NCBI GenBank assembly: GCA_965248445.1
Contig: CBDFJG010000001.1
Coordinates: forward strand, 558,131 to 622,130
Direction: 5' to 3'
Source: Planctomycetota bacterium
GTDB taxonomy: Bacteria; Planctomycetota; JAJSAM01; JAJVHW01
Length of the DNA stretch: 64,000 bases
The position numbers and the translations under genes are program-made. Below are positions 39,286 through 41,537 of the stretch, piece after piece (position 1 is the first letter of the stretch; every line of letters starts with the position of its first letter). The notes below the pieces were generated by a model that had not been told where the DNA came from, made no database searches, and saw only the letters and a program-made list of their open reading frames with translations.

Positions 39286-40527
39286 ATGACGACGGCAGGC
39301 GACTCCGGCGACCCTCTGATGGTCGCGTTCTCGGGCGGACTCGACACCACTTGGCTGGTGGCGCGATCACGTGAGATCGAGGAGCGACGTCCGGTCATCA
39401 CCGTGACGGTGGACACCGGGGGGTTCTCGCCCGAGGAGCTTCGTCAGATCGAGGACCGCTCCCGCCAGGCCGGAGCGGCCCGGCACGTCCTGATCGACGG
39501 GCGGCAGTCGGTGTTCGACCGGTTCGTGCGGTTCCTGATCGCCGGAAACTGCCTGCGCGGCGGGTCCTACCCGCTGTGCGTGGCCGCCGAGCGGATCGTG
39601 CAGGCCGAGGAACTGGCGTGCGCCGCGCGGACCTCCCGCGTGCGCACCGTCGTCCACGGCAGCACCGGGGCCGGCAACGACCAGATCCGGTTCGACGTCG
39701 CGCTGGCGGTGCTGCTGCCGGAGGCCGAGGTCCGCGCCCCCGTGCGGGAACTCAGTCCCTCGCGCGAAGAGGAGTACGCGTTCCTCGAGGAGCGCGGACT
39801 GCCCGTGGACCGCGCCGCCAGGACGTACTCCGTCAACCGCGGGCTCTGGGGCACGACGATCGGCGGCGGCGACCTGCACCACCCGGAGAAGCCGATCCCG
39901 GCGGACTGCTGGGCCGACACGGCGGATCCGGATGCGTGCGACGCCGTGGGCGAGACCGTGGCGGTGACGTTCCGGCAGGGCGTGCCCGTCGCGCTCGACG
40001 ACGCCGAGATGTCCGGGCCGGACCTCGTCGCGGCGCTGAACGAACGCGCGGCGGCACAAGGCGTCGGCCGCGGCATTCACACCGGCGACACCATCCTCGG
40101 TATCAAGGGACGCCTCGCGTTCGAGGCTCCTGCGGCGGCTGTGCTGGTCTTCGCGCACCGCGAACTCGAGAAGCTGGTGCTCACCAAGCGCCAGATGGAG
40201 TGGAAGGACCGCCTCGGCGCGTACTACGCCGCGCTGGTCCACGAGGCGCTCTACTTCGACCCGGTGGCGCGGGACATCGAGGCGTTTCTCGCGTCATCAC
40301 AGACCACGGTCACGGGCACCGTGCGCGTGCGCTGCGTGCGCGGCCGCACCGAGGTCGCCGGGATCGAGACCGACGCGTCGCTCATGGGGCGGCTCGGTTC
40401 GGTGTACGGCGAGGGTGCCGGCGCGTGGTCCGGCGACGAGGCGCGCGCGTTCGCGAAGCTGTACGGCTTGCCGTCGGTGCTCGCGGCGCGGCGGGACGCG
40501 GACCTGGCCGACGGCGGTGCGTCATGA
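39286..40527 (+). CDS. argG: Argininosuccinate synthase
   Basis: AFSGGLDTT PP-loop motif, overall length 413 aa, first gene of the arginine cluster. Confidence 0.9.
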   Translation: MTTAGDSGDPLMVAFSGGLDTTWLVARSREIEERRPVITVTVDTGGFSPEELRQIEDRSRQAGAARHVLIDGRQSVFDRFVRFLIAGNCLRGGSYPLCVAAERIVQAEELACAARTSRVRTVVHGSTGAGNDQIRFDVALAVLLPEAEVRAPVRELSPSREEEYAFLEERGLPVDRAARTYSVNRGLWGTTIGGGDLHHPEKPIPADCWADTADPDACDAVGETVAVTFRQGVPVALDDAEMSGPDLVAALNERAAAQGVGRGIHTGDTILGIKGRLAFEAPAAAVLVFAHRELEKLVLTKRQMEWKDRLGAYYAALVHEALYFDPVARDIEAFLASSQTTVTGTVRVRCVRGRTEVAGIETDASLMGRLGSVYGEGAGAWSGDEARAFAKLYGLPSVLAARRDADLADGGAS

Positions 40528-41537
40528 AGACGCACCTCGACAAGATCGCTTCCTGCACCATCAACGCGAAGCTCGACCGCGAGGTCGAGGTCAGCGACCA
40601 GCTCGCGCCGGAACTCGGGCGGGTGGTCGTCGTGCGCGCATTGCGCGAGAAGACCGTCTACGACAAGGTCGAGCTGGTCAGCGGCCGCATGGCGAAGATC
40701 AGCAAGGACGACGTGATCGCGGGTGTGCTCGGCCGGCGTCGCGCGTTGCGCGGCTTCGTCGGTGACATCCCGGACGAGATCCGCGTCGGCGACCGGGTGC
40801 ACATCCTGAACATCGGCGGCGTCGTCGGCGTCGTCGTATCGGGCAACCTCGACCTCGGACAGCCGCTGCTCTGCGAGGTCGTGGGCGCGGTCATGCACAA
40901 CGGCGAACCGGCCAGCATCTCGAAGGGCATCCCGCCTCCGCCGGACACGCTCGGTGACGTGCCACTGATCCTCGTCGAAGGCACGTGCATGAACTCGGGC
41001 AAGACTTACGCGGCTGCAACGCTCATCCAGAAGCTGACGCAGCGGGGCTACCGGCTGAACGGCGCGAAGTTGACGGGCGTCGCGTGCATGCGCGACCAGC
41101 TCAACATGGAGGACCACGGAGCCGTGCGCACGAAGAGCTTCCTCGACGTGGGGCTGCCCTCGACCGTCGGCGTCGACGACGTCGCGGGCGTGGCGCGAAC
41201 CCTCCTCGCGGACCTCGCGAGCGACAAGCCCGACGCGATCATCGCCGAACTCGGCGACGGCATCATCGGCTACTACGGCTGCGACAAGATCCTGGCCGAC
41301 CCGGAGATCCGCAGGGCGACCAAGGCGCACGTCATGTGCGCCAACGACCTCGTCGGCGCGTGGGGCGCGGTCGAGGTCATGCGCAAGTGGGGTCTCGAGA
41401 TCGACGTGCTGACCGGACCGGCGACGGACAACGACGTGGGCGAGGGCTACGCGAAGCAGGAACTGCGGCTGCCGGCAGCGAACGCACGGCTCAACCCGCA
41501 CAAGCTCGCCGACCTGGTCGAAGGCCTGGTGTTCTGA
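40524..41537 (+). CDS. P-loop-containing protein of unknown function embedded in the arginine operon (possibly DUF1611/DgcN-like)
   Basis: 337 aa; ATGA overlap with argG stop and TGATG overlap with argC start; Walker-A-like GTCMNSGKT. Family assignment is from recollection and unverified. Confidence 0.55.
   Translation: MKTHLDKIASCTINAKLDREVEVSDQLAPELGRVVVVRALREKTVYDKVELVSGRMAKISKDDVIAGVLGRRRALRGFVGDIPDEIRVGDRVHILNIGGVVGVVVSGNLDLGQPLLCEVVGAVMHNGEPASISKGIPPPPDTLGDVPLILVEGTCMNSGKTYAAATLIQKLTQRGYRLNGAKLTGVACMRDQLNMEDHGAVRTKSFLDVGLPSTVGVDDVAGVARTLLADLASDKPDAIIAELGDGIIGYYGCDKILADPEIRRATKAHVMCANDLVGAWGAVEVMRKWGLEIDVLTGPATDNDVGEGYAKQELRLPAANARLNPHKLADLVEGLVF

Follow-up and report, generated by a model that had tools for sequence, protein, structure and literature searches.

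We analysed a 64,000-nucleotide (nt) stretch of contig CBDFJG010000001.1 (assembly GCA_965248445.1, positions 558,131 to 622,130; hereafter the window), which comes from a Planctomycetota-like metagenome-assembled genome (MAG) and carries an arginine biosynthesis operon. The second gene of this operon encodes a conserved, unnamed P-loop protein, referred to here as X. A preliminary description of the locus had put X forward, with reservations, as a candidate for the first step of the pathway, the N-acylation of glutamate. Here we describe the operon and gene X, their counterparts in other genomes, and the functions that X may have.

An arginine operon with an unnamed P-loop gene

The operon comprises eight genes on the forward strand, in the order argG-X-argC-argD-argF′-argB-argE-argH, and all of its junctions overlap, by 1-8 nt. 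The first gene, argG (39286-40527), encodes an argininosuccinate synthase of 413 amino acids (aa) with the Pfam domains Arginosuc_synth and Arginosuc_syn_C; NCBIfam argG models score it at ~266-299 bits, each below its own cut-off. X is followed by argC (41537-42604), which has Pfam matches and reaches 335 bits with TIGR01850 (cut-off 233.6), and by argD (42601-43767), which starts with GTG and encodes an N-acylornithine aminotransferase of 388 aa (Aminotran_3, E = 1e-97; argD-type NCBIfam models at ~366 bits, below their cut-offs). The product of argF′ (43760-44761) is an N-acylornithine carbamoyltransferase of 333 aa, predicted to be specific for succinylornithine (NF003384, 366 bits, cut-off 288; top PDB match 3l02), and that of argB (44761-45672) is an N-acylglutamate kinase of 303 aa (TIGR00761, 236.6 bits, cut-off 151.3). 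The argE-like gene (45669-46757) encodes an M20 deacylase of 362 aa, a candidate N-succinylcitrulline desuccinylase, with Peptidase_M20 and M20_dimer domains and with NCBIfam matches to DapE/ArgE-family deacylases that all lie below cut-off. The final gene, argH (46754-48172), encodes an argininosuccinate lyase of 472 aa (TIGR00838, 546.6 bits, cut-off 279.5). Because ArgF′ scores above the cut-off of the NCBIfam N-acetylornithine carbamoyltransferase model, the operon is assigned to the variant pathway, in which acylated rather than free ornithine is carbamoylated.

Every step past the first is encoded in the operon, by ArgB, ArgC, ArgD, ArgF′, ArgE, ArgG and ArgH. A scan of the operon and of ten flanking genes revealed no ArgA, ArgJ or GNAT protein, and AA_kinase is the sole Pfam domain of ArgB, with no fused acetyltransferase domain. 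The gap in glutamate N-acylation that the preliminary description had pointed out is thus present across this region. A promoter and terminator scan across the operon was uninformative, with no promoter-like sites and two terminator-like sites where chance alone would give 3.0.

Gene X (40524-41537) runs from an ATG to a TGA with no internal stops and encodes 337 aa. Its ATG and the argG stop share 4 nt (ATGA), and its TGA and the argC ATG share 1 nt (TGATG), which bears out the earlier claim of an open reading frame (ORF) coupled to its neighbours on both sides. Long spurious ORFs are abundant in the window, where the G+C content (GC) is 68%. That X is nevertheless a genuine gene, rather than an ORF arising by chance at high GC, is shown by its GC at codon positions 1/2/3 (0.69/0.41/0.92), by more than 3,900 homologues, none of them named, that align with it from residue 1, by proteins of related Planctomycetota MAGs that are ~80% identical to it, and by an AlphaFold2 model with a mean pLDDT (predicted local distance difference test) of 91.7. 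In a representative library clustered at 50% identity, the homologues of X account for more than 1,300 clusters.

Conservation was assessed in an alignment of 44 diverse members that are 27-52% identical to X. The Walker-A-like motif GTCMNSGKT, already noted in the preliminary description, lies at residues 153-161 (40980-41006), and its G159, K160 and T161 are invariant across the 44 homologues. The other invariant residues are R72, P83, K182, D191 and E242, while S10, E50 and D90 in the N-terminal domain are near-invariant. As read from the alignment, this set amounts to an intact Walker A motif, an acidic residue at the Walker B position, a Lys matching K37 of BioD, and an Arg in the N-terminal domain. 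C155, in the P-loop, and C188 appeared invariant among close relatives only. Since both vary at the depth of 44 members, a catalytic role for either cysteine, as thioester intermediate or as part of a metal site, was discarded.

Fold, genomic context and a kinase fusion

X matches no Pfam, NCBIfam or PDB sequence entry at threshold. This agrees with the earlier statement that X corresponds to no canonical enzyme of the arg pathway. The top Pfam match is DUF1611_C (PF07755), which scores 15 bits (E = 0.016) where the cut-off is 25. It covers residues 146-177 only, a segment of ~35 residues made up of the P-loop plus a helix, and the Pfam scan gave no match at gathering score across the domain. 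Among 30 members of the X family, 24 match DUF1611_C weakly and one matches AAA_26, a Pfam model of BioD type; where relatives were scanned in detail, the DUF1611_C match spans no more than approximately positions 6-49 of the 201 in the profile, and two alone reach the cut-off. The NCBIfam matches of X, to MobB, BioD and CobQ, are P-loop noise (the bioD model TIGR00347 gives 13 bits, below its cut-off of 83), and no GNAT or ArgJ match appears in Pfam or NCBIfam even at E <= 1. When the X-family profile was compared with PDB sequences, BioD alone was matched, non-significantly (E ~0.5). This profile alignment pairs GTCMxxGKT...K182 of X with GTDTEVGKT...K37 of BioD, and places T11 and E12 of BioD opposite M156 and a variable residue of X.

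The AlphaFold2 model of X has two domains. The N-terminal domain (approximately residues 1-146; 40524-40961), which holds the invariant R72 and P83, is rich in beta structure, has no relative of solved structure and is distinct from the Rossmann-like N-terminal domain of DUF1611 proteins, which X lacks. The C-terminal domain (approximately residues 147-337; 40962-41534) is a P-loop domain of the SIMIBI class, similar to BioD and DUF1611_C, and holds the invariant K160, T161, K182, D191 and E242. Its structural neighbours include the DUF1611 proteins 2g0t (score 17.3) and 2obn (16.4), BioD (3of5 and 1a82; 16.4 and 16.2), CTP synthase (15.8), and the D-glutamate N-acetyltransferase DgcN (7xrj; 15.5). 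Foldseek against the PDB returned generic SIMIBI NTPases, with HypB, SRP GTPases and MeaB on top and 2obn at rank 25, and did not single out DUF1611. The fold of the P-loop domain is common to X and DUF1611/DgcN, and the loose resemblance to this family proposed in the preliminary description is, to that extent, real. Judged by the model, however, it is limited to the P-loop half of X and is no closer than the resemblance to ATP-using BioD.

The arrangement seen in the window recurs in other genomes. A scan of a collection with one genome per species matched at least 600 stretches, at least 593 of which encode an X relative, and the best 80 loci were examined. In 78 of these 80, arg genes adjoin X, nearly always in the order argG-X-argC-argD-argF′-argB. 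The loci belong to Planctomycetota, Acidobacteriota (Blastocatellia and Thermoanaerobaculia), Gemmatimonadota, Chloroflexota, Cloacimonadota, Sumerlaeota and Wallbacteria; the two exceptions (L022 and L037) encode X with no arg gene detected nearby. Arg genes also adjoin X in three further loci (L085, L086 and L087), and in the gene calls of L085 and L086 X is flanked on both sides by 4-nt overlaps. Homologues labelled Myxococcota and Woeseia (Gammaproteobacteria) were found as well. The Woeseia protein is 44% identical to X (E = 3e-88), and its locus, L087, reads argR-argG-X-argC-argD-argF′-argB-argH, without argE. An M20 argE-like gene accompanies X in the window operon, in other Planctomycetota and in Thermoanaerobaculia, and is missing from many X clusters, such as those of Blastocatellia and Woeseia.

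Several loci depart from the common arrangement or carry an unexpected label. Two Gemmatimonadota loci (L014 and L019) have the order X-argC-argD-argB-argG-argH, with no argF′-type gene nearby. One Chloroflexia MAG (LS1_sbin.44; L042 and L073) has two paralogues of X, each in a partial arg cluster of its own (X-argC and argG-X-argF′-argH). For the X protein of a contig labelled Pseudohongiellaceae (L051; JBLIMM010000022.1), the homologues that carry organism names are all from Planctomycetota, at 65-83% identity, and the gammaproteobacterial label is for this reason probably a binning or classification error.

X also occurs fused to a kinase-type domain. Protein P0165, of 626 aa as called, combines a complete X domain, with 43% identity to the window protein, and an ArgB-like amino-acid-kinase domain, which is 32% identical to the window ArgB over its length and scores 127 bits with TIGR00761. 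Its true start lies upstream of the called one, as in-frame upstream sequence extends the alignment with X. The protein is identical on four metagenome contigs (L081, at 8001-9881, L082, L083 and L084), where it stands alone, divergent from an arginase-family gene. The fusion is real and not an assembly artefact, and it is rare, since a search for further X-kinase fusions found P0165 to be the sole such cluster in the database. It gives a further hint that X acts beside the kinase step.

The acyl group and the function of X

The acyl group carried by the intermediates can be approached through ArgF′. In an alignment with PDB sequences, Ala91 of the window ArgF′ (codon 44030-44032) aligns with Glu92 of the Xanthomonas acetylornithine carbamoyltransferase (AOTCase), the determinant of acetyl or succinyl specificity, and the top PDB match, 3l02, is the E92A variant of that enzyme. 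The substitutions E92A/P/S/V shift acetylornithine carbamoyltransferase to N-succinylornithine (Shi et al. 2007, as cited in 10.1101/2024.10.14.618325). Because ArgF′ carries Ala where Glu92 stands, the window operon most likely runs on succinylated and not on acetylated intermediates. The preliminary description had allowed for either acetyl or succinyl donors; the residue favours succinyl, and acetyl less so. A succinyl route also fits the top matches of the M20 protein, which are sub-threshold matches to DapE/ArgE-type deacylases, desuccinylases included. In 53 loci with an ArgF′ adjoining an X homologue, the position is occupied by Thr (29), Ala (17), Gln (4; L017, L055, L058 and L073) or Ser (3), and never by Glu; Thr is found in the Blastocatellia loci. 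Since Thr and Gln lack specificity reports, the acyl group is less certain in the lineages that carry them, and the acyl group or the route may differ between lineages, as in the Gemmatimonadota without argF′ or where position 92 is Gln or Thr.

With these observations in hand, X is probably the first enzyme of the pathway, a non-GNAT N-succinyl-L-glutamate synthase whose P-loop would hold the diphosphate of succinyl-coenzyme A (CoA) and whose N-terminal domain would help to bind glutamate. We favour this role because of the gap in the pathway, the arg gene context, the DUF1611/DgcN structural neighbours, the succinyl-type ArgF′, the fusion to an ArgB-like domain, and the GapMind 2026 preprint (10.1101/2024.10.14.618325), which in Appendix 2 independently predicts this function for the protein ACG33_RS14135 (A0A127FCT3) of Steroidobacter. 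The hedged proposal of the preliminary description, that X supplies the N-acylation step, gains support from the 78 of 80 arg loci, the fold, the fusion and the preprint, and continues to be a prediction. The reaction that we infer, with its acyl donor and the part taken by each residue, is as follows. The C-terminal P-loop domain would grip the nucleotide-diphosphate part of succinyl-CoA through K160 and T161 of the Walker A motif, together with K182, D191 and E242, while the family-specific N-terminal beta domain, with its invariant R72, would help to place L-glutamate. The amino group of glutamate would then attack the thioester of succinyl-CoA, and the product would pass to ArgB, ArgC, ArgD, ArgF′ acting as succinylornithine carbamoyltransferase, the M20 desuccinylase, ArgG and ArgH.

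Several points weigh against this assignment. The sequence similarity of X to DUF1611 falls short of the threshold and is limited to a P-loop segment of ~35 residues, and the Rossmann-like N-terminal domain is not present. ATP-using BioD and CTP synthase are structurally as close to the C-terminal domain, and the fold alone is therefore no pointer to acyl-CoA chemistry. The view is limited to 64 kb of the genome, and ArgA or ArgJ could be encoded elsewhere. The Thr or Gln found at position 92 of ArgF′ in 33 of the 53 loci has no reported specificity. X and ACG33_RS14135 very likely belong to one family, a conclusion drawn from matching descriptors and from the Woeseia homologue rather than from a sequence alignment. 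Lastly, the synthase role is predicted for every member of the family, including the one discussed in the preprint.

The structural closeness of BioD leads to a different reading, in which X would be a CoA-independent, ATP-dependent ligase of BioD type that phosphorylates succinate (or another acid), giving an acyl phosphate from which the glutamate amino group is acylated, with the succinate released by the desuccinylase being recycled directly. The sole PDB sequence match of the X-family profile, non-significant at E ~0.5, is indeed BioD; the C-terminal domain is structurally as near to BioD as to DgcN, the Rossmann-like domain of DUF1611 is absent, and the invariant K160, T161, K182, D191 and E242 would suit a phosphoryl-transfer P-loop enzyme. 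These features are set against a sequence signal that goes most consistently to DUF1611_C (24/30 members, compared with 1/30 for AAA_26), and against the replacement of T11 and E12 of BioD by M156 and a variable residue in X. To our knowledge, there is no ATP-dependent N-acylglutamate ligase with the fold of X. Furthermore, DgcN, the one characterised relative, is called an acetyltransferase in the title of PDB entry 7xrj and in the part of the preprint that deals with this family (10.1101/2024.10.14.618325). We consider such a ligase unlikely. If X were one, arginine synthesis in a large part of the Planctomycetota, Acidobacteriota, Gemmatimonadota, Chloroflexota and other groups would begin with a reaction class new to the pathway, built on an N-terminal substrate domain of unseen type.

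It is less likely again that X is an accessory or regulatory NTPase, which might control or scaffold ArgB while the first step falls to an enzyme encoded in another part of the genome. Regulators and chaperones are common among SIMIBI P-loop proteins and include the HypB, SRP GTPase and MeaB entries that head the Foldseek list; a fusion to an amino-acid kinase would suit a regulatory partnership too, and the inspection covered 64 kb of the genome only. The fixed place of X in the operon across several phyla and its translational coupling are nevertheless those of a stoichiometric pathway enzyme, and its large conserved N-terminal domain with an invariant Arg suggests the binding of a small molecule. 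According to Appendix 2 of the preprint, likely functional orthologues of ACG33_RS14135 and of ArgA never occur in one genome, and Steroidobacter grows on minimal medium without a recognisable ArgA (10.1101/2024.10.14.618325). A G3E-type GTPase chaperone in particular is unlikely, as the guanine motif NKxD of that family is seen neither in the sequence of X nor among the conserved residues of its family. Finally, X might take another step, such as the deacylation of N-acylcitrulline, or add an acyl group other than succinyl or acetyl. Many X clusters without an argE-like gene (Blastocatellia, Woeseia), and the 33 of 53 loci in which position 92 of ArgF′ is Thr or Gln, would be compatible with this. 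We nonetheless judge it very improbable, as X and the M20 argE-like gene coexist in the window, in other Planctomycetota and in Thermoanaerobaculia, the P-loop fold is not that of an amide-bond hydrolase, and Ala or Ser at position 92 are among the substitutions reported to switch the carbamoyltransferase to succinyl substrates (Shi et al. 2007, as cited in 10.1101/2024.10.14.618325). In the window operon itself, X is no substitute for ArgE, because an M20 deacylase is also encoded there.

Surroundings of the operon and relation to known systems

The region upstream of the operon contains several other features. Directly upstream and divergent from it (34919-38528, reverse strand) lie genes for a PP2C-type phosphatase, an ABC ATPase, and a large ABC2 permease fused to an Rce1/CPBP-like domain, which were identified in the window by synteny and motifs. 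This module is syntenic with the arg operon in other Planctomycetota (L085, 5097-8682; L086, 2642-6347). An ORF of 150 aa just upstream of argG (38674-39126, forward strand) has a hydrophobic, lipoprotein-like N-terminus and no Pfam match, and a terminator-like hairpin (39147-39163) separates it from the start of the operon. The sole tRNA or Rfam match in the window is a tRNA-Arg(ACG) gene (34809-34885, reverse strand). Between it and an IS-rich region lies an ORF of 187 aa (33583-34146, reverse strand) that matches the N-lobe of a Ser/Thr protein kinase only (Pkinase profile positions 3-110 of 263), and that is for this reason probably truncated or a pseudogene. The mobile-element cluster, ~8-19 kb upstream of the arg operon, includes two direct IS66-family copies of 1,532 bp that are 100% identical (22395-23926 and 29932-31463), with transposase Pfam matches on the ORF at 29963-31438, and a third, inverted copy that has diverged (~71%; ~27976-29627). 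A near-perfect inverted repeat of ~600 bp (20360-20960 and 25189-25786) brackets the first copy.

The idea that X is a synthase is not new, since the prediction for its family is already found in Appendix 2 of the GapMind preprint (10.1101/2024.10.14.618325). There, the family of ACG33_RS14135 is described as almost always located in arg operons, together with argG, argC, argD, argF′, argB, argH and sometimes argE, and as weakly similar to DgcN (7XRJ) by Foldseek; position 92 of the neighbouring ArgF′ is given as A/P/S/V in 90% of cases and sometimes as I/T/Q. X resembles ACG33_RS14135 in its arg-operon location, its remote structural similarity to DgcN (7XRJ) and its association with an ArgF′ lacking Glu92, and the Woeseia cluster without argE resembles what the same passages describe for Steroidobacter. 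The two proteins differ in origin, ACG33_RS14135 being from a gammaproteobacterium and X from a Planctomycetota-like MAG. The passages of the preprint on this family do not mention the distinct N-terminal domain, the equal similarity to BioD, or an X-ArgB fusion. The window adds corroboration in the form of an eight-gene operon that contains X plus an argE-like gene, and its analysis adds the X-ArgB-like fusion, the restriction of the DgcN likeness to the P-loop half, and a small set of invariant residues. Many lineages that are uncultured or little studied lack a recognisable enzyme for the entry to arginine synthesis. These gaps would close if X proved to be the synthase, and predictions of arginine auxotrophy would change for Planctomycetota, Acidobacteriota and others.

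Among proteins related by fold, DgcN and the DUF1611 proteins (PF07755; 7XRJ, 2G0T and 2OBN) have a Rossmann-like N-terminal domain, whereas that of X is beta-rich; DgcN acts on D-glutamate and is catabolic, whereas X is predicted to act on L-glutamate with succinyl-CoA in biosynthesis. BioD has a single domain and uses ATP to close a ureido ring, while X has two domains and no biotin context. At the same step of the pathway as that predicted for X stand ArgA, with its kinase-like and GNAT domains, ArgJ, the short GNAT synthases, the bifunctional N-acetylglutamate synthase/kinase (NAGS/K) and BT3761 of Bacteroides. The last of these is a GNAT N-succinylglutamate synthase, and Bacteroides too uses succinylated intermediates and has its synthase encoded in the arg operon. 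P0165 parallels classical ArgA and the bifunctional NAGS/K, in which a kinase-type domain is likewise fused to a synthase. The known N-acylglutamate synthases have no kinship with X in sequence or fold. X would accordingly be analogous and not homologous to them, and as a P-loop protein it would represent a third, unrelated solution to glutamate N-acylation beside GNAT and ArgJ.

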